64,000 bases of DNA from an uncultured Gammaproteobacteria bacterium (GCA_963846315.1 CAWJVM010000007.1:24288-88287); one strand, 5' to 3'. Numbered from the stretch's first letter, positions 3,483-52,978 are shown. A program made the numbers and translations. Notes: generated from the letters alone by a model not told the origin.

Positions 3483-4400
3483 TCAGCGCGGCCTGATCCG
3501 GTCCGCGATGATCGAGCCGTCCGTGGCCACTCGGCCGCGCACTTCGACGTAGTCACCTGGTGCCGGGGATTTGTCGATGCGCGTGCCGCCGGAGACCCCG
3601 AGCGTCAACCCGTCGAGTCGCCAGCGACCGGTCAGTTCGCCATGCAGCCGGACCTCGGCACCTGCGGGAACAGGCGCCGGCTGACCCTCGGCATCACGCG
3701 CACCCTGGCGGATCCATTCGACGATGAGCTTGATGTCATCGTCGGGCAGGTACGGCGGTCCGTCGAACGGCATGCGGGGCTGGGCCTGGCCACGCACACG
3801 TCGCACCAGTTCGCTGGCTTCGGGGTGTCCAGGCACCACCCGAACTCGATCGGCAATTGACAGCGTCGCCTCGTACGACGTCAGGCGGTAGCCTTCCGGG
3901 GCCGGTCCCATGAGACCGCGCTCGGCGTGGCACTTGGCGCAGCGCGTGGCGAGAATCGGCGCGACGTGCAGGTAGGTGACCGCTTCGCCCGGGCCCGGTC
4001 GTCGCGGCGCAGCGGGCTTCGTCGCGGCGGCACGCGACTCCGGGCCTGCCGCCAGGCCGGTTGCGATCCAGCGCTCGAACCGGGTGATCTCATCGTCGGC
4101 GAGAAACGGTGGGCCGGTCATCGGCATGCGCGGCTGGCTCGTACCGCGGAGACGCCGGATGAGTTCGCTATCCGCTGCATTGCCGGTCTTGACGATCGGA
4201 CCGTTACGACTGCCGGCGAGCAAACCCTCGAGGCTGTCGAGCCGAAGTCCGAGTGGAGCTCCGTCACCTTGATGGCACATCACGCATCTGGACGACAGGA
4301 TCGGTGCCAGATCCGCATAGGTCACGTCCTGCGCCCGAACGGACGTCGAGCAACAAATAGCGGCCCAAGCGGTGATGATCCAAACCGACTTAGTCGTCAT
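3483..4400 (-). CDS. secreted dihaem c-type cytochrome-domain protein
   Basis: 305-aa ORF with a signal peptide (MTTKSVWIITAWAAICCSTSVRA). Two CxxCH motifs (CVMCH, CAKCH) sit in two internally repeated modules (...LRGxxQPRMPxxGPPxLxDDxI...), reminiscent of planctomycete-type cytochrome c domains. C-terminal beta-rich tail. Confidence 0.7.
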   Translation of the reverse strand: MTTKSVWIITAWAAICCSTSVRAQDVTYADLAPILSSRCVMCHQGDGAPLGLRLDSLEGLLAGSRNGPIVKTGNAADSELIRRLRGTSQPRMPMTGPPFLADDEITRFERWIATGLAAGPESRAAATKPAAPRRPGPGEAVTYLHVAPILATRCAKCHAERGLMGPAPEGYRLTSYEATLSIADRVRVVPGHPEASELVRRVRGQAQPRMPFDGPPYLPDDDIKLIVEWIRQGARDAEGQPAPVPAGAEVRLHGELTGRWRLDGLTLGVSGGTRIDKSPAPGDYVEVRGRVATDGSIIADRIRPR

Positions 4401-4700
4401 GGTCGCCCTCGATCGAATGTTAGCTCATCGGCGCCGCTGCGCCTGCCGGTGCGTTGATCAGGAGCAATGCACGGGCGACACTATTGTCAGGCGTGTCACA
4501 AGCGGTGGCGTGAATCGCAGCCGCCCTCTTTGCGAAATCCGAAGTCTGTGTCGACGCGTTCAGCAAGACGCGGGTGCCCTGGCGTTGTCGCGGCAATGGT
4601 TGTTGCTCCCGCCGCAATGATTACAGTGTTCTGGACCCATTTCGTCTAGTGATCGCCGACGTTCTTACGCTTGCAATGCCCGCATCGAGTTATCGAAAGC

Positions 4701-4729
4701 GGTGCGCATAAATGTATAGCAAGTGTCGC
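4701..4729 (+). other. degenerate dif-like junction 1 (XerC-type arm + TGTATA core, no XerD arm)
   Basis: GGTGCGCATAA-A-TGTATA-GCAAGTGTCGC. The left arm is identical to the E. coli dif XerC arm as recalled, with one extra A before the core. The right arm is unrelated to a XerD arm. Confidence 0.6.
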
Positions 4730-4838
4730 GAAGGCCCACCGACAATGTATAAAAGACAAGCGGATAGGGCGCTCTCCCGAGCAGGCAATGTGTCATGAGT
4801 CACTTATTTAGCCTGTCGAATATTCCAGACTGGCTGTC

Positions 4839-5921
4839 ATGAGTCGCGACTTGCCATCGTTAACCGGCCTCCGTGGAATCGCAGCGCTGTGGGTGCTTGG
4901 CTATCACACGATGCTTGCTCTTCAGCGCTTAGGTTCTCCGATCGCAATTCCGGTTGGAGTATTCGGTCGCGCCGGCTACCTTGGAGTTGACGTCTTCTTT
5001 GTCCTATCGGGATTCGTCATTGCCTACAACTATGCAGACGGCCGGAAATGGACACCGGCCTCATACGGGTCGTTTCTTTGGAAGCGACTCGCGCGAATCT
5101 ATCCCGTACACCTGGCGGGCCTCGCACTCGTCGGCGTCTTCCTGCTGTGCATGGCCATAGGCACAAAAGTCGCGTCGCACACACTTCCCCAGTTGGTTGC
5201 TTCGATCGCGCTTGTCCAAGCTTGGAGCGTTCCGGTGCGAGCGACGTGGAACGTCGTATCCTGGTCGGTAAGCCTTGAGTGGGCTGCGTATCTCACCTTT
5301 CCGGCTATCGCTCTCGCAGCAGGAAGACTCCGATCGACGGGAGTAATCGTGGGTGTGGTGGCGGTACTGTTCCTTTCCCTGTTTCTCGTGGCAACGTCCG
5401 TTCCTTTCCAGGGGACGATGGCATATGGCGTATTTCGGGTCGCCGCCGAATTCACGTCGGGCGTCTTGCTGTTCCGTCTCTGGACCCTGCGGCACGACGC
5501 TGTCACATCATGCGTTGCAATTGCGGCACTAGCGACTCTTGTCTTTGGAGGGAGCGCACTCGACTATTTAAGCGGCGAGCACGCCGCGTTCATATACATC
5601 ACATTCTTCTCCGCCGTCGTGGTCTATAGCCTGGCTTGCGCACCGTCGGCCTTCAATGGCTTGGTGCTCCAGCACCTCGGCAGGATGTCGTACTCGCTCT
5701 ATATCGTGCACGACGTGGTCCTGAACTTCGCCAAAATGACTGTCGCGAAATACGCCTTCGCGCCTGCGTGGATACTAGCTGGCAGTCTGTTCGCCATTGC
5801 GTTTGGGCATCTTTTTTACACTTATCTGGAAAAACCGGCGAGAACGCGGATGCTGAGCATCACAGAACGGTTCGTCAAAGGACGAAGCGCGTTGAGCAGG
5901 GGTACAACCGCTACTGAATAG
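4839..5921 (+). CDS. acyltransferase family 3 (OafA/Oac-like O-acyltransferase), polytopic membrane protein
   Basis: 360-aa ORF. The N-terminus LTGLRGIAALWVLGYHT...GVDVFFVLSGFVIAY is the typical acyltransferase_3 signature. About 10 hydrophobic helices. Lower-GC codon usage than neighbouring genes. Confidence 0.85.
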   Translation: MSRDLPSLTGLRGIAALWVLGYHTMLALQRLGSPIAIPVGVFGRAGYLGVDVFFVLSGFVIAYNYADGRKWTPASYGSFLWKRLARIYPVHLAGLALVGVFLLCMAIGTKVASHTLPQLVASIALVQAWSVPVRATWNVVSWSVSLEWAAYLTFPAIALAAGRLRSTGVIVGVVAVLFLSLFLVATSVPFQGTMAYGVFRVAAEFTSGVLLFRLWTLRHDAVTSCVAIAALATLVFGGSALDYLSGEHAAFIYITFFSAVVVYSLACAPSAFNGLVLQHLGRMSYSLYIVHDVVLNFAKMTVAKYAFAPAWILAGSLFAIAFGHLFYTYLEKPARTRMLSITERFVKGRSALSRGTTATE

Positions 5922-6086
5922 GTCAAAGCAATTAAGACGTTGCGGCCGAAGCAGCGCGGCTCAAATTCGCCGCTGCAACCCTAATCGGTCAGGCGCTCTT
6001 CGAGATGGGTCACTTGGAGATGTCGGCTGCGGCCACCAGCCCAGTCTATAAAGTCTTTCGAGCACATGACTTGTTAGAGACGCGCC

Positions 6087-6171
6087 GTGGCGACGGTCGT
6101 GCCGGCGCTCTTCGATCCCGCTGTCGTACCGGCGGCGAGGGCGTTGTACGGCACAAAGGTGGCTCCGGTCC
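6087..6171 (+). repeat. conserved non-coding blocks, copy A (paralogous to 9449-9641)
   Basis: GTGGCGACGGTCGTGCCGG (6087-6105), GCTGTCGTACC (6120-6130) and CAAAGGTGGCTCCGGTCC (6154-6171) recur in the same order at 9449-9467, 9483-9493 and 9624-9641. Each copy ends about 25 nt before a dif-type site. Confidence 0.7.
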
Positions 6172-6198
6172 CTCAAGGAACTGGAGCACGTCACACCG

Positions 6199-6226
6199 GG
6201 CACGCATAATGTATAGCAAGCACAAT
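6199..6226 (+). other. degenerate dif-like junction 2
   Basis: GGCACGCATAA-TGTATA-GCAAGCACAAT. XerC-type arm and identical core. The right arm begins GCAAG, as at junctions 1 and 3. Confidence 0.6.
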
Positions 6227-6320
6227 TCTTGCCGCTGAAAGATCAGCAATCGAATCAGTAACTTGCGCCAGTCTCGCCGATGTGCAAACTGGAGGTACGC
6301 GCCAATCAGGAGACGCACGG

Positions 6321-6869
6321 ATGGCGGACTCGCCAGGCACCGACCCCGCTTTGGAACAACACATCGCTGAAGTTCACCGGCGAGTTGGCCGCAATGTCAT
6401 CCGAGTGCAGCGGCTAGAAGGCGCGCTCAAAGCACTCGTTCCGTACCTAGACATTCAAGGGGCAGCGCACTGTCTGGATGGCCTCGATGAACGTGCAGCA
6501 CGGACTGCGAATCAGACGCTGGGGCAGTTGATCAGGTCTTTTCGGAATTCGTTTACGTCCGAAAGTCTGGAGATGCGTCGCGAGTTGGAAACCATCCTTG
6601 CAGGCCGCAATGAGCTTATTCACCAATTTCACAAGACCTATGGTCCATTGTGGAGGGATCACAACGGTCGGGGCGCGATTGTCGCGAAATTGGATGCGCA
6701 GTTTGAACAGGTCACCAAATTTGAGCAGGTCCTGCTCGATTTAATAGTGCAATTGCTTCGGATACTCCGGGACTGCCAAGATTCGGATTCCGAGGCATTC
6801 CAAGCGTTCGAAGAAACTTACCGCCAAGTGGAATCCGCCCTTCGCCCCCATATGGCGAACGACGCCTAA
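6321..6869 (+). CDS. hypothetical helical protein (IMEX 2 cargo)
   Basis: ORF track 6282..6869. I prefer ATG 6321, preceded by AGGAGA 8 nt upstream. Predicted all-helical and charged (…LEGALKALVPYLD…ILAGRNELIHQFHK…), with no motif I recognise. The stop TAA (6867-6869) lies inside the XerC-like arm of junction 3. Confidence 0.55.
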   Translation: MADSPGTDPALEQHIAEVHRRVGRNVIRVQRLEGALKALVPYLDIQGAAHCLDGLDERAARTANQTLGQLIRSFRNSFTSESLEMRRELETILAGRNELIHQFHKTYGPLWRDHNGRGAIVAKLDAQFEQVTKFEQVLLDLIVQLLRILRDCQDSDSEAFQAFEETYRQVESALRPHMANDA

Positions 6870-6886
6870 TGTATAGCAAGCCTTCT
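6859..6886 (+). other. degenerate dif-like junction 3
   Basis: ACGACGCCTAA-TGTATA-GCAAGCCTTCT. Weaker XerC-type arm, identical core, GCAAG right arm. Confidence 0.5.
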
Positions 6887-7022
6887 TTTTGAGACTCCCA
6901 AACAATAAGCACAATCAAAGAGTTGCAAGATATTGCTCAGTGTGCAAACTGCACGATGCCGGGGGGCTGCAGCGATGTTCCCGTACCCTCGCCGTGACCG
7001 AGGCAAACAGCCGGAATGTTGA

Positions 7023-7496
7023 TTGGAACCGCAGGCTTCAGAAGAAGGGGCTACACAGGTCCTTGTAGTGGCTGAACAAAACAAAGTCATCGAAGGCAAA
7101 CAATTCGACTCGCCGCTTGTATTGCCTGGCGCCAGTAACGTCGAGCCACAGCGCTACATTGCTGAGATGCCGTATGAACTCACGAAGTATGAGTTCGTGG
7201 TCTTACGGCGACGGGGGACGTCGCATCTGCTTTTCACAAGCGCTGTGAGCGCCACAGTTGGCATCGCCTTAATGCTCACAGGCAAGTTTGTTTCCGGCGT
7301 GATTACACAACAGCAGCCCGATTGGCATAAATGGGAACTGGTGACGCTGGGGTGCGGAATCGTGCTGAGTATTGTCTTGACGTTTGTTCGGTCGCGCGAT
7401 GACAAGGAGCGAGAGCAATTAGAAGAGGTGATCAATAGCCATTTTCAGGCCAACAAGCCTCGCCGCGTGCACGTCACCGCAGGATCCGACCAATGA
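7023..7496 (+). CDS. hypothetical membrane protein (2 TM), IMEX 3 cargo
   Basis: 157-aa ORF starting at TTG; the internal start MPYELTKY is possible. Two hydrophobic helices (LLFTSAVSATVGIALMLTGKFV; LVTLGCGIVLSIVLTFV) followed by a charged tail. The stop overlaps the next start (ATGA at 7493-7496). Confidence 0.5.
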   Translation: MEPQASEEGATQVLVVAEQNKVIEGKQFDSPLVLPGASNVEPQRYIAEMPYELTKYEFVVLRRRGTSHLLFTSAVSATVGIALMLTGKFVSGVITQQQPDWHKWELVTLGCGIVLSIVLTFVRSRDDKEREQLEEVINSHFQANKPRRVHVTAGSDQ

Positions 7497-7960
7497 GACT
7501 CGACAGTCTTCCACCGCGGTTTGTCCCTTATAACCGCATGAAGATCAGGACCAACACGCTTGAGAACGCTACCGCGATCTTTTCGGTCAATGGGTCTATC
7601 CCGTTGCTGATTGGGCAGGGTTTTCCTCCCAGGGTCTGGCTATCACTACCAGCCAACCGCGAAGCGGATCAGTGGGTTCCATTGATCAAAGAGAACTTTT
7701 CATCGCATCCCGATGTAAAGGTACAGGCTCTTGGAAAAAGAGTCCTGGTTCAGGCCAAGGGACAATCGGTCATACATGTAATGCAGAACGACGGTGGCGA
7801 CCTGATGTTCTTGAAACTGGATTTGCGTCCTTTCGGACTAGACGTTTTCACGGACGACAACATGCTGCACGTGATGGGCAACACCTTGTCGGGAAACACG
7901 TTCAAAAATGTGAGCGTCGCAATTGGTATCGGTCGACCAGGCGTTGGGAATAAACCCTAA
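7493..7960 (+). CDS. hypothetical soluble protein, IMEX 3 cargo
   Basis: 155-aa ORF translationally coupled to 7023..7496. No recognisable motif. The 3' end overlaps the convergent rep stop. Confidence 0.5.
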   Translation: MRLDSLPPRFVPYNRMKIRTNTLENATAIFSVNGSIPLLIGQGFPPRVWLSLPANREADQWVPLIKENFSSHPDVKVQALGKRVLVQAKGQSVIHVMQNDGGDLMFLKLDLRPFGLDVFTDDNMLHVMGNTLSGNTFKNVSVAIGIGRPGVGNKP

Positions 7961-9075
7961 CTGAGAGTCCGTGCCGGCTGGGCGTACGCATCCCGCCGAG
8001 TCAATGTCACCCGACAATAGCCAGGTCCCCATTGAACGCGGCGTTCCCACTCTGACTCGATGTGCTCTCCGGTTGATCGAACAACCCAACTGCCACCGGC
8101 AGCCTTTCGTACAACATCCCCTTCGGATGTTCGATTGCGGATGTAAGCGGGTAGGGCACGCCACTGTGCGAGTCGCTTGGCGGAGTCGAAGCCACCGACG
8201 CCAAAGAGCCGCGCGCCTTTCGGCAGAGAACGTCCCTGGTCGCCTTTGCTAGCGTACTTGGTGATGTAAGCCGGGCCGCAGCGGGCCTTCTCGATGCGAG
8301 TGAGTCCATGCGGCCACAGGGCCTTGCGTTGGCGACCCATGGCAGTGTCGGGCTTCGGCAGTCGAAGGCCGGACGGAACCCACCAGAGCACGTGGTAATG
8401 CGGAGCGCCGCGCATCTGCATCTCAAGAACCCACTCGTATGCATAGACGATTTTGCGTGCCTCGAGCCAGCCCCGCATGCGCTTCACGTATTCGGTGATC
8501 TGGCGTGGCGAGTACTCGACGCCCGGCGCGTAGGTGAGCGTCACCATGATGCATTGGCAGTTGACGCCGGAATCCGCGAACAATGAGCGAACCGTATCCG
8601 CATGGTGACCAACGACGAGCTTCAACTTTCTAAGCCGGGCCGACTGCGCGAGTTCGCGGGTCGCGTCGTAATGACTTGTTGCAGTGAACGAGATGGATTG
8701 AATCGCGGACGTGTCACTTGTTTGTTTTCCGACAAGCCCAGAGGGGAGGGCATTGTGATCGGCGGAGCAGGGGCCGTCTCCAACGGCCTCCCTGCCCTCG
8801 CCGGCAGTGATGGTCTGCAGACTACTAGTCTCGGAACCATCACCGGCCACAGCAACGCTCTCCGTAGCCGACGGCGATTCAAGGCCTACCGGTCCCGGAT
8901 GGTTTAGCGTGGACGCGGCCGATATCGGCGTAACGTTGGGTTCAGGTTCCGCGCTCGTACAGTGGCCCCGGCTGCCGGATCGCCCCGGAGGGGACGCGCC
9001 TTCGGCGCTCGACGCCTGCGGCGTCCTAAGAGGTGCCTCCGGCCCCGCAGCACGGCTCTCCGTCGCCGGGGTCAT
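7957..9075 (-). CDS. rolling-circle replication initiator (HUH endonuclease, phiX174 gpA / phage CRI-like)
   Basis: 372-aa ORF. HUH motif in GAPHYHVLWWV. Catalytic Tyr motif AYITKYASKG (compare phiX174 A: YVAKYVNK). Motif-1-like IMVTLTYAP. Disordered Ser/Ala/Pro-rich N-terminus. The start overlaps the upstream gene stop (ATGA at 9072-9075). Confidence 0.8.
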   Translation of the reverse strand: MTPATESRAAGPEAPLRTPQASSAEGASPPGRSGSRGHCTSAEPEPNVTPISAASTLNHPGPVGLESPSATESVAVAGDGSETSSLQTITAGEGREAVGDGPCSADHNALPSGLVGKQTSDTSAIQSISFTATSHYDATRELAQSARLRKLKLVVGHHADTVRSLFADSGVNCQCIMVTLTYAPGVEYSPRQITEYVKRMRGWLEARKIVYAYEWVLEMQMRGAPHYHVLWWVPSGLRLPKPDTAMGRQRKALWPHGLTRIEKARCGPAYITKYASKGDQGRSLPKGARLFGVGGFDSAKRLAQWRALPAYIRNRTSEGDVVRKAAGGSWVVRSTGEHIESEWERRVQWGPGYCRVTLTRRDAYAQPARTLS

Positions 9076-9413
9076 GCGGACCTTAGGATGCGGCAGTATT
9101 CCTCAAGGTCCCGTGGGTCTTTGCTCGCCAGGTCTCGCGCCAGCTGAACGATCAGCCAGTGTGCGCGCAGCTGTCTGGGACCGAACTCGTGGCCATCTGG
9201 GTCCACCAGATGATCGCGGCGGATAGCGAATCCTTTCCATAGGTCGTCAAGGACGCGGCCGTCACGATAAAGAGCAAACAGACGCATCGCCTGACGGGAC
9301 GGCTTACGGGCCCCGGACTTGTAGAGACGAGCCGTCGCAACGGAAACGCCGCACCAACGCGCAATCAGCTGGTCGGGGTAAACGTAGAAGATTGATAACG
9401 GTCGAGCAGGCAC
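9072..9413 (-). CDS. DUF3653-like phage protein, candidate XafT-type Xer activation factor
   Basis: Track ORF 9072..9626. The conserved-looking part starts about LSIFYVYPDQLIARWCGVSVATARLYKSGARKPSRQAMRLFAL (HTH-like), followed by ...WKGFAIRRDHLVDPDGHEFGPRQLRAHWL. I place the start at GTG 9413, with GAGGAA 9 nt upstream. The upstream part of the track ORF overlaps non-coding repeat blocks. Family assignment is from memory of DUF3653. Confidence 0.55.
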   Translation of the reverse strand: MPARPLSIFYVYPDQLIARWCGVSVATARLYKSGARKPSRQAMRLFALYRDGRVLDDLWKGFAIRRDHLVDPDGHEFGPRQLRAHWLIVQLARDLASKDPRDLEEYCRILRSA

Positions 9414-9448
9414 AGCAAGACATTCCTCGACTGAGGAACCTTGCCCGC

Positions 9449-9653
9449 GTGGCGACGGTCGTGCCGGTGTTTCACGAAACCTGCTGTCGTACCAGGCTGG
9501 TGCGCTGTTGCCAGCGCCCATTTCCGACAGACCGGACCTTGAGCCACGCTGCTCGGTAGCGCCGTCCGAATCCTTCCGATGCGGCCTACGAGACGAAGCA
9601 TAAGACGGCGAAGGCGGTCGAGGCAAAGGTGGCTCCGGTCCACTTGGGACCGG
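9449..9653 (+). repeat. conserved non-coding blocks, copy B, ending in a perfect hairpin next to dif
   Basis: The same three blocks as 6087-6171, separated here by an extra insertion of roughly 100 nt. Hairpin CCGGTCC-ACTTG-GGACCGG at 9635-9653, 11 nt before dif. Confidence 0.7.
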
Positions 9654-9664
9654 GCCATCCTATT

Positions 9665-9692
9665 GGTACGCATAATGTATATTATGGTAAAT
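9665..9692 (+). other. dif: chromosomal dif site (XerC arm - core - XerD arm)
   Basis: GGTACGCATAA-TGTATA-TTATGGTAAAT matches the E. coli dif 28-mer as recalled (GGTGCGCATAA-TGTATA-TTATGTTAAAT) at 26 of 28 positions. Confidence 0.85.
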
Positions 9693-10038
9693 CACCTAAT
9701 GAAATTGATAGCTGGAGCCTGATGTCGCTGTGGCTGTCCTGCATTTTTGGGAACCGCCCTTCGTCATTTTGGGAACGTGCCGCTCCAGGCTGACCGACCG
9801 AGGGTTTCGTCGACTACATCTTCAGGAGTGCGCGTACGGGTCTCAGGAACTGCTAATTGGATGGGCTCACCCTATCGAGACCTGAGTCGCTGAATGCAAA
9901 CAAACTCACACCGCTTTACGTTGTCGCCGCTTTCGCTCGAGGCCGTCGATTGCCTTGAGCCGGCCGTGCGTTGGCGCCTGTGTCGCCCGATTCATCGGTC
10001 ACGGAGCTTTTCCTGGGAACCGTGCCGAACGGGCGTTG

Positions 10039-10062: not shown

Positions 10063-10320
10063 ATGCTTCGACATATGAGAACCACGGTCCGTCTCGACGA
10101 GGGTCTTCTGGAGCAGGCGCGCCGCGAGGCTGCCCGGCGCGGCGTCACGCTGACGGCACTGATCGAACAGGGCCTGCGGATGGCGCTCCGTCGACCACGA
10201 CCCTCGTCCCGCGCGGAACGGGTTCGGCTGCCCGTGAGCCGCGCCACGGGCGGCGTACTGCCGGGGATCGATCTGAACGATTCCGCCGATCTGCTCGACC
10301 GGATGGACGAGCGTAGTTGA
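10063..10320 (+). CDS. vapB: type II antitoxin, VapB-like
   Basis: 85 aa. (MLRH)MRTTVRLDEGLLEQARREAARRGVTLTALIEQGLRMAL is a typical RHH/VapB-type N-terminus. The stop overlaps the toxin start (TTGA). Confidence 0.8.
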   Translation: MLRHMRTTVRLDEGLLEQARREAARRGVTLTALIEQGLRMALRRPRPSSRAERVRLPVSRATGGVLPGIDLNDSADLLDRMDERS

Positions 10321-10742
10321 TCCTTCCGGACGTCAACGTCCTGATCTACGCGTACCGGGTCGACTCGCCGGACCATTCACGGTACAAGGCGTGGCTCGAA
10401 GACGTCGTGAACGGTCCCGCGACGTTCGGCCTGGCGCCGAACGTACTCTCCGCGGTTGTCCGCGTCTGCACGCACCCGCGGATCTTCGCCGTCCCGAGCG
10501 ATTCGGCCGAGGTGTTCGAGTACGCCAATGCGCTGATCGGCCAGCCCAATGCGACGCTTGTGCAGCCTGGCGAGCGACACTGGTCGCTGTTCCAGCAGAT
10601 CTGCCGCGATTCGCGCGCGACCGGCAATCTCGTTCCCGACGCCTGGAATGCAGCGCTCGCCATCGAGGCGGGCTGCGAATGGATCACGACCGACCGGGAC
10701 TACACGCGCTTTGCGGGACTGAAGTGGCGCACGCCGTTCTGA
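10317..10742 (+). CDS. vapC: type II toxin, PIN-domain ribonuclease VapC
   Basis: 141 aa with a TTG start. LPDVNVLIYA...NLVPDAWNAALAIEAGCEWITTDRDYTRF carries the conserved acidic PIN residues (D5, E, D, D). Confidence 0.85.
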   Translation: MILPDVNVLIYAYRVDSPDHSRYKAWLEDVVNGPATFGLAPNVLSAVVRVCTHPRIFAVPSDSAEVFEYANALIGQPNATLVQPGERHWSLFQQICRDSRATGNLVPDAWNAALAIEAGCEWITTDRDYTRFAGLKWRTPF

Positions 10743-52891: not shown

Positions 52892-52978
52892 GCCCCGGTG
52901 GCGAAATCGGTAGACGCTACGGACTTAAAATCCGTTTCCCGCAAGGGAGTGCCAGTTCGAGTCTGGCCCGGGGCACCA
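52892..52978 (+). tRNA. tRNA-Leu (anticodon UAA), type II with long variable arm
   Basis: Manual fold:
- acceptor stem GCCCCGG/CCGGGGC
- anticodon stem ACGGA/TCCGT with loop CTTAAAA
- variable arm TCCC-GCAA-GGGA
- T arm GCCAG-TTCGAGT-CTGGC
- discriminator A followed by CCA. Confidence 0.9.

Follow-up and report, generated by a model that had tools for sequence, protein, structure and literature searches.

The satellite phage TLCphi of Vibrio encodes XafT (VC1465), a factor that activates the recombinase XerD independently of FtsK via its DUF3653 domain (Midonet et al., PMC6744903). XafT is necessary and sufficient for the integration of a phage attachment site (attP) with a poorly bound XerD arm, and a mini-TLC has been shown experimentally to integrate when XafT is expressed ectopically (PMC6744903). 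Most DUF3653 proteins of gamma- and betaproteobacteria are encoded next to dif (PMC6744903). XafT permits the integration of sites with many XerD-arm sequences, and arms that deviate from dif escape FtsK-driven excision (Miele et al., PMC9226527). Here, a 64,000-nt stretch of DNA from an uncultured Gammaproteobacteria bacterium (GCA_963846315.1, CAWJVM010000007.1:24288-88287), referred to as the window, is analyzed. The 5 kb to the left of a predicted dif site in this window (4701–9692) very probably represent a tandem array of three TLC-type integrative mobile elements exploiting Xer recombination (IMEXs), designated A, B and C from left to right. The array would be a new example, distinguished by a GCAAGC-containing attP, of a known class that exploits the Xer recombinases of the host. 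This assignment follows from the combination of recombination sites, element borders and DUF3653 and replication initiator (Rep) content. A first-pass annotation of the sequence had proposed that TLC-type elements with an attP lacking a XerD arm were stacked at dif. In agreement with this proposal, C contains a DUF3653 gene and an HUH-type rep gene, and relatives of C are found at dif; a XafT-type gene, which the annotation could not see and which its proposal predicted, is present.

Four sites define the array:

9665–9692, + strand: functional-looking dif, XerC arm GGTACGCATAA, TGTATA, chromosomal XerD arm TTATGGTAAAT
4701–4729, + strand: junction 1, leftmost, attL-type, XerC arm GGTGCGCATAA, an extra A, TGTATA, non-XerD arm GCAAGTGTCGC
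6199–6226, + strand: junction 2, XerC arm GGCACGCATAA (from A), TGTATA, GCAAGCACAAT (left end of B)
6859–6886, + strand: junction 3, XerC-like arm ACGACGCCTAA, TGTATA, GCAAGCCTTCT (left end of C)

The 28-mer at 9665–9692 (GGTACGCATAATGTATATTATGGTAAAT) is organized like a dif site, with arms of 11 bp for XerC and XerD on either side of a 6-bp central region. As the first-pass annotation had noted, two of its positions deviate from the E. coli dif 28-mer. It is the sole match with three or fewer mismatches in the window, and dinucleotide-preserving shuffles of the window produced no match (0/100). Identical copies of this 28-mer are present in L077, L081 and L122 (L-numbers designate comparison contigs or loci that carry homologs or matching sites). 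Based on these features, 9665–9692 is predicted to be dif, the XerC/XerD dimer-resolution site of the chromosome.

The left junctions of all three elements carry GCAAG instead of TTATG.TAAAT, such that TGTATA-GCAAG is shared by the sites at 4701, 6199 and 6859 where a XerD arm is expected. The junction 14-mer TAATGTATAGCAAG has exact copies at 6207 and 6867 and a copy with a single change at 4710; its expected count is 0.02 and no shuffle reached three. TGTATA itself is found only eight times on both strands of the window, and five of these copies lie on the + strand between 4713 and 9676. All four sites read as first described, but the XerC-type arm that had been assigned to each junction is matched at 6859 in only 6 of 11 positions. 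Likewise, the view that the leftmost XerC arm is the best one holds relative to the E. coli sequence but not beyond that comparison. Junction 1, which is presumed to hold the ancestral chromosomal XerC arm, has a 7-nt spacer owing to the extra A (4712) and is homologous to the decayed left sites of an acyltransferase cassette in L143 and L142. The fifth TGTATA, at 4746–4751 and 33 nt past junction 1, was considered as a vestigial junction and rejected; it is probably no junction because the aligned left end in L143 has a non-TGTATA sequence (CAATCCAATGCA). The interval was also correctly described as richer in AT than its surroundings: the GC content of 4701–9692 is 57.3%, versus 66.5% in the left flank and 65.6% in the right flank, and falls below the lowest 1.5-kb window outside the interval (62.5%).

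The dif-proximal element, C, had been singled out as the most intact of the three, and it alone contains both a rep gene and a xafT-like gene. Its features are:

6887–9664: element C, a TLC-like IMEX of 2.78 kb with an operon of xafT-like and rep genes (- strand) and two cargo open reading frames (ORFs; + strand)
7023–7496, + strand: cargo ORF, possible membrane protein
7493–7960, + strand: cargo ORF, phrog_12462
7957–9075, - strand: HUH rolling-circle replication initiator (Rep), motifs HYH and YITKY (YxxK)
9072–9413, - strand: XafT-like protein (DUF3653; Pfam, NCBIfam), about 113 residues
9414–9664, + strand: non-coding right end, conserved up to the XerC arm in L078, L081 and L122

The Rep of C matches Pfam REP_ORF2-G2P (9e-26) and phrog_2969 (6e-31), and shares 37–38% identity with the gene II proteins of Xanthomonas inoviruses, including Cf1c, phiLf and XacF1. 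In the protein database, 84 homologs of this Rep were found, with up to 84% identity. The XafT-like protein scores 35.3 bits against Pfam DUF3653 (PF12375; cutoff 22.4, E = 1.3e-8) and matches the NCBIfam model NF040522 (VC1465_fam, "VC1465 family Xer recombination activation factor") at positions 13–97 of 111 with E = 9.3e-11. The stop codon of its gene overlaps the start of rep (ATGA), which places both genes in one operon beside the XerC arm. Homology to relatives, which are annotated as 113-residue genes, starts at residue 75 of the long xafT-like ORF. No helix-turn-helix (HTH) domain of the XRE type was detected in this protein, and it has no match by tblastn in deposited phages or in a PDB sequence search. 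Among the two other ORFs of C, no coat, Zot or assembly gene was found in Pfam, PHROGs or NCBIfam. ORF157 and ORF155 gave no informative match in Pfam, NCBIfam or PADLOC, and only ORF155 hits a PHROG, the function of which is unassigned. A hairpin with a perfect 7-bp stem, CCGGTCC-ACTTG-GGACCGG (9635–9653), lies 11 nt upstream of the XerC arm of dif. L078, L081 and L122 retain this stem, and its counterpart in element A (6165–6184) is degenerate. With an HUH Rep and a DUF3653 protein, C is predicted to be autonomous.

Comparison with relatives locates the borders of C. Elements at dif in L078–L081, L122, L120 and L077 share 84–90% nucleotide identity with C, and at least four host contexts other than that of the window have a relative at dif. 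The xafT-like and rep operon adjoins dif in L078, L079, L080, L081 and L122. At the right border, identity of 84–85% to L078–L081 and L122 extends from 7994 to 9691–9695 and then ends. The element-side sequence ccatcctatt-GGTACGCATAA-TGTATA is conserved there, in contrast to the XerD arm (TTATGTTAAAC or TTATGGTAAAT) and flank, which vary with the host. At the left border, the first ~90 nt of C (6862–6954) match L114 and L120 at 82%, with a good XerC arm (GGTACGCATAA) preceding the C-type left end in both, and 6870–6953 is 86% identical to L077, in which the 3′ end of another ORF lies upstream. In these three loci (L077, L114 and L120), the left end of C is joined to different left partners exactly at TGTATA. 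Single occupants are also observed: 3.75 kb in L120 and 4.74 kb in L122, each between a junction (GGTACGCATAA-TGTATA-GCAAGCATTA...) and dif. Between the left end and rep, the C-type members carry unrelated genes. Because homology stops at the Xer site in varied hosts, C is a discrete mobile unit.

Some sites of these relatives also carry insertion sequences (ISs). A gene for a 482-residue HTH/DDE transposase (L077:7640-9088, +) is found between the xafT-like gene and dif (L077:7551-7578) in L077. The IS end lies ~10 nt from the XerC arm, and the same end abuts the dif of the unrelated locus L135. A homologous transposase is encoded in L127, and an HTH fragment in L142 (11573–11806). The ISAba32 subgroup of IS1202 has been reported to target Xer sites (bioRxiv 10.1101/2022.12.17.520857), and the placement at the dif sites of L077 and L135 fits such targeting.

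Of the described modes of Xer-dependent acquisition, the TLC type agrees best with the layout of the locus. Integration of this type proceeds without FtsK, with XafT promoting a first strand exchange by XerD. The elements are in direct orientation at dif, with a XerD-less junction on one side and a complete dif on the other. C supplies the XafT-type DUF3653 gene, which A and B lack, as well as an HUH initiator without virion morphogenesis genes, and occurs in different hosts with borders at Xer sites. In VGJ-type integration both junctions are complete dif-like sites, whereas the three left junctions here carry GCAAG. The CTX type involves two inverted dif-like sites that fold in single-stranded DNA, and no dif-like site exists on the - strand of the region. 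Finally, the locus differs from pdif modules in that all sites are direct and on the + strand, three lack a XerD arm and the context is chromosomal.

A mechanism can be proposed in which the attP of each element consists of a XerC arm, TGTATA and a non-XerD sequence starting with GCAAG. Circular C would replicate via its Rep. XerC would then bind the XerC arm of the element, and we infer, by analogy with TLCphi, that the DUF3653 protein of C would activate XerD without FtsK. Strand exchange in TGTATA would create a left junction, composed of the previous XerC arm, TGTATA and GCAAG, and a regenerated dif on the right, composed of the XerC arm of the element and the XerD arm of the host. For the present dif, GGTACGCATAA would have been supplied by element C and TTATGGTAAAT by the chromosome. 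The next element would enter on the dif side, giving an arrival order of A, then B, then C; the leftmost arm would be ancestral and growth would occur on the dif side because each newcomer uses the regenerated dif. A and B would be either non-autonomous cassettes that use XafT in trans or deletion derivatives of fuller elements. XerD-less junctions would resist FtsK-driven excision and be free to decay once buried, which may account for the additional A at 4712 as well as the weak 6859 arm. The last-arrived XerC arm would stay under selection because dif must work. This left-to-right pattern fits selection acting at dif alone.

The two elements on the left are smaller:

4730–6198, + strand: element A, a 1.47-kb cassette with one gene, GC 57.2%
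4839–5921, + strand: family-3 acyltransferase (OafA-like O-acetylase), Pfam Acyl_transf_3 (1e-29), phrog_3333 O-acetyltransferase (1e-44)
6086–6198, + strand: non-coding right end of A, collinear with that of C (9448–9664) apart from an internal deletion
6227–6858, + strand: element B, a 0.63-kb cassette with one ORF, ORF195
6282–6869, + strand: ORF195 of B, probable ATG at 6321 after AGGAG, stop codon in junction 3
6210–6300, + strand: left-end module of B, TGTATA-GCAAGC, ~33 nt, aaTCA, ~5 nt, CTTGC, ~17 nt, GTGCAAACTG

The acyltransferase of A probably O-acetylates a surface polysaccharide. The right end of A keeps three collinear blocks (~110 nt) of the C-type non-coding right end, with exact direct repeats at 6086–6105 (equal to 9448–9467) and 6154–6171 (equal to 9624–9641). 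This collinearity suggests that A descends from a C-like element. The A cassette recurs at 76–80% nucleotide identity, beside dif or a junction, in L142 and L143, the host flanks of which are unrelated. In L142, the unit lies between a decayed junction (AGTACGCATAA-TGTAGA-GCAGG) and dif (AGTACGCATAA-TGTATA-TTATGGTAAAA); in L143, its borders are a left site that has decayed and a good junction (GGTGCACATAA-TGTATA-GCAAGCC).

ORF195 of B has no match in Pfam, PHROG, NCBIfam or PADLOC. Homologs of ORF195 (27–47% identity) directly follow junctions in L077, L119, L136, L139 and L141; those in L119, L139 and L141 are 43–47% identical. The homolog stands alone between two sites in L136 and L077, and the L141 contig ends inside it. 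In L119 and L139, an SRA-HNH nuclease gene comes next, its start codon overlapping the stop codon of the ORF195-family gene. This arrangement hints that ORF195 may be a partner or regulator of a nuclease-type defence gene.

The sites of the window belong to a wider family. The 19-mer CGCATAATGTATAGCAAGC, which junction 2 matches exactly, was found in 59 metagenome contigs in one metagenome scan, and every dif on these contigs or on Rep-derived loci (ten loci) is downstream of the junction and on the same strand. Arrays of two to three junctions are frequent: L084, L104, L105 and L112 have three each, and L132 has three junctions plus dif within 3.3 kb. When 28 two-site intervals are pooled with the three of the window, five hold a xafT-like gene and rep (2.8–5.2 kb) and the remainder span 40 bp to 2.2 kb, although short contigs bias these counts toward short intervals. 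The architecture of a junction plus a regenerated dif is also seen in L077, L120, L122, L088, L094, L111, L132 and L135.

Several of these units are small and carry other genes. A two-ORF cassette is 94–97% identical among L094, L127 and L129, where the upstream flanks are unrelated and homology begins exactly at ttcgcataa-TGTATA-GCAAGC; in L094, this unit measures 760 bp from junction to dif and has no Rep or XafT. The unit of L111 measures 661 bp from junction to dif, and its only called ORF encodes a RibD_C protein. L088 holds a 1.9-kb junction–dif unit (6215–8117) with a class A beta-lactamase-family gene (Pfam Beta-lactamase2, 2.8e-54). A search for DUF3653 in the dif-proximal units of L088, L132 and L135 gave no match. 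Other cargo includes PIN toxins, DJ-1/PfpI, FAA hydrolase, an Asp/Glu racemase (L135) and the SRA-HNH nuclease. Closely spaced site pairs were observed at 771 and 823 in L097 (52 bp apart) and at 2370 and 2410 in L104 (40 bp apart), and may be scars that remain after loss of a cassette interior. Positions in L088 and L097 refer to the locus reverse-complemented to put the junction on the + strand, and those in L104 to the contig as stored.

A fixed-spacing left-end module recurs in 39 distinct left ends (L076–L141), including those of B and C (6870–6960) in the window. The left end of A differs and is of the GCAAGTGT type, which is seen in L132 too. Within the module, GCAAGC is complementary to a conserved (A/G)CTTGC located ~45 nt downstream, and TTGCA and TGCAA form an inverted pair. 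GCAAGC and CTTGC do not covary, because a subgroup with ACTTAC keeps GCAAGC. Alignment folding gave no consensus structure for the module, and no promoter of the sigma-70 consensus type came up in a simple scan of 4600–9800. Possible roles for the module are those of a weak promoter, an operator and a replication origin. IMG/VR contains no copy of the junction 18-mer, and a Rep-based locus search there came back empty. No description of a GCAAGC-attP family was found in the literature searched.

These comparisons lead us to a broader and tentative proposal, which we place somewhat short of an even chance: a widespread dif-linked cassette system. Its units would be small, mostly single-gene and without Rep or XafT, each with an attP of XerC arm-TGTATA-GCAAGC and many with the 85-nt left-end module. 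The host XerCD would capture them serially at the chromosomal dif, with the activator provided in trans by xafT-rep helpers that share the attP and the module. The occurrence of Rep- and XafT-less units with exact Xer borders in varied contexts suggests such trans-activated gene trafficking at dif. If true, this system would be a Xer-based analog of integron cassette arrays, with cargo so far including an O-acetyltransferase, a beta-lactamase-family protein, a PIN toxin, an SRA-HNH nuclease, a dihydrofolate-reductase-like protein and a racemase. Trans-mobilized cassettes would also make dif a hotspot for accessory-gene acquisition, and the surface-modifying enzymes and beta-lactamase-family proteins among the cargo could be of practical relevance.

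Several observations weigh against a stepwise array of TLC-type elements at the chromosome terminus. The VC1465_fam match of the XafT-like protein (41.8 bits) is below the curated cutoff of 70. Neither A (ORF, Pfam and PHROG searches) nor B has a Rep or XafT gene, so both encode no mobility function. The 6859 arm, with its low match to a XerC arm, shares bases with the stop codon of an ORF. In L077, as in the window, a B-like unit is followed by a C-like element, and the inner site of L077 has no XerC arm (tggactcggag-TGTATA-GCAAGC). The first-pass annotation had suggested that related genomes be inspected for an empty site in which the 4701 arm joins directly to TGTATA and the XerD arm; none was found in the collections scanned. 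No closely related genome is present in these collections: a scan of genome contigs with the flanking cytochrome c gene yielded no relative above 74% identity, and its one locus with dif nearby (L010) is not syntenic. An identical cytochrome gene is present in only two other contigs (short, Logan), both of which have the acyltransferase gene adjoining. Exact look-ups of VapC and Rep for other copies returned nothing. With regard to the terminus, a chromosomal dif would be expected once per replicon, where GC skew and the polarity of FtsK-orienting polar sequences (KOPS) switch. Cumulative GC skew in the window has a local peak at ~10 kb and rises again from 21 to 50 kb. The GGGNAGGG motif, used for KOPS polarity, is found in the expected direction to the right of dif, at 5 vs 2, counts that are too low to decide. 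Octamer skew likewise gave too few counts in the window. The only terminus signal that fits is gene strand, with 64% of coding bases to the right of dif on the - strand. The skew, GGGNAGGG and strand results are compatible with a terminus and are not decisive.

The strongest competing account concerns A and B. Rather than having moved on their own, they could derive from full xafT-rep elements by deletion and decay in place. The ~110 nt of C-type right end in A, with its internal deletion, would be expected from such a history, as would the decay of the left sites of the acyltransferase unit in all three genomes. The sites 40–52 bp apart in L097 and L104 indicate that interiors can be lost. 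However, complete junction–dif units without Rep or XafT are common (L111, 661 bp; L094, 760 bp; L088, 1.9 kb; and L135), and the cassette of L094 recurs in two other contexts at 94–97% identity with an exact left border. Moreover, the acyltransferase unit has the same content in three hosts with no trace of rep. Decay in place is thus unlikely, if still a serious contender, for these two elements.

Tandem arrival of separate elements must also be weighed against a composite origin, in which B and C, or all three, were integrated as one unit and the inner TGTATA-GCAAG sites are passively carried remnants of earlier tandem integrations. B and C may have been transferred jointly, as L077 repeats the order of an ORF195-like unit and a C-like element with an armless inner site. 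In L125, a small unit precedes a C-type left end, and XafT can promote the joint excision of neighboring IMEXs in V. cholerae (PMC6744903). The B/C junction may no longer be, or may never have been, an active Xer site in the genomes of the window and L077, because the 6859 arm matches at only 6 of 11 positions and its L077 equivalent has no arm. Between these two loci, however, the B-like ORFs are 27% identical and the C parts are 86–90% identical at the DNA level, which indicates that B and C have different histories. In L120 and L122, moreover, a C-type element is the sole occupant of the interval from a good junction to dif, and L136, L119 and L139 contain ORF195-type units but no C-type element. 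A composite origin is therefore regarded as rather improbable, and successive integration is retained as the preferred reading.

It is very unlikely that the 28-mer is a secondary Xer site, plasmid-like or element-borne, with the true chromosomal dif elsewhere. Such a placement would agree with the fact that the terminus is not demonstrable inside the window and with the contribution of half of the 28-mer by the element itself. The genes around the array are, however, those of ordinary chromosomal metabolism, including Ccm, a formate-dehydrogenase-like protein and a carboxyltransferase. In addition, the XerD arm TTATGGTAAAT is common to the dif sites of L010, L076 and L088, of which L010 has no xafT-rep element nearby, and, in genomes with an annotated dif, DUF3653 genes are clustered at the true site (PMC6744903). 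Lastly, chance similarity or ordinary repeats unrelated to Xer recombination, for which the degenerate 6859 arm is the sole argument, can be dismissed given the shuffles (0 for the dif 28-mer, mean 0.02 for the junction 14-mer), the consistent orientation relative to dif across the 59 metagenome contigs and the homology breakpoints of relatives exactly at the sites.

The genes closest to the array on either side are:

3483–4400, - strand: di-haem cytochrome c gene, left flank
10063–10742, + strand: VapBC-like pair, VapB (ribbon-helix-helix) and VapC (PIN), right flank

The cytochrome c gene holds an 85-nt direct repeat (3731–3815 and 4085–4169, 72% identity) that probably reflects two homologous haem-binding halves. 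Past dif on the host side, the VapB/VapC toxin–antitoxin genes are the first pair encountered, and PIN toxins are cargo too in the related arrays L104 and L131. A tRNA-Leu(TAA) gene (52892–52978, +) is the only Rfam or ARAGORN match in the window.

Compared with known systems, C most closely resembles TLCphi of V. cholerae. Both integrate at dif with an attP composed of a XerC arm, the central region and a non-canonical XerD arm, and dif is regenerated on one side. Both have an HUH initiator, a DUF3653 gene beside the XerC side of attP and no virion genes, and in Vibrio, as in the window, further IMEXs stack at the regenerated dif. The two elements differ in their initiators: the Rep of C belongs to REP_ORF2-G2P and is of the Xanthomonas-inovirus type, whereas Cri of TLCphi belongs to another Pfam family, which we take to be Phage_CRI, and the contrast rests on this assignment. 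Unlike its TLCphi counterpart, the XafT-like protein of C lacks a detected XRE HTH, falls below the NCBIfam cutoff and is encoded in an operon with rep (ATGA). C also differs in its GCAAGC arm and in its hosts, which are uncultured high-GC proteobacteria.

Among deposited phages, the Reps closest to that of C are those of Xanthomonas Cf1c, phiLf and XacF1. The attP of XacF1 (TTCGCATAA-TGTATA-GAGGG) and that of phiLf (TTCGCATAA-TGTATA-GAAGG, annotated as a XerC/D recombination site) share the design of the C attP, and both phages, like C, carry a DUF3653 ORF. In contrast to C, these phages are complete (6–7 kb), with coat and Zot-like assembly genes, an attP inside an ORF, a DUF3653 gene outside the rep operon and GAGGG or GAAGG rather than GCAAG. 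The gonococcal genetic island (GGI) of Neisseria is ~57 kb long and carries a type IV secretion system. Like A and B, the GGI has no XafT of its own; it is a single island with a partly degenerate XerD arm, unlike the array of single-gene units seen here. Integration of the GGI in trans has been proposed, as it has no xafT gene (PMC6744903), and it is an unusually long IMEX (PMC9226527).

The pdif (xrs) modules of Acinetobacter resemble the units of the window in being small, Xer-bounded and often limited to one gene, including beta-lactamase genes, and IS1202-family insertion sequences abut their sites, much as an IS end does in L077 and L135. Unlike the units of the window, pdif modules are plasmid-borne, have both arms, alternate in orientation (C/D, D/C), lack XafT and are not located at chromosomal dif. 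Integron arrays share with the window mostly single-gene, promoter-proximal-oriented cassettes with their own recombination sites at one chromosomal locus, with entry at one end. The window differs from integrons in having no IntI, attI or attC; its recombination sites resemble dif, and the host XerCD presumably acts as the recombinase. Taken as a TLC-type array, the window would offer a clean natural example of stacking at dif and would extend TLC-type IMEXs, studied so far in Vibrio, Xanthomonas and Neisseria, to uncultured high-GC environmental proteobacteria.

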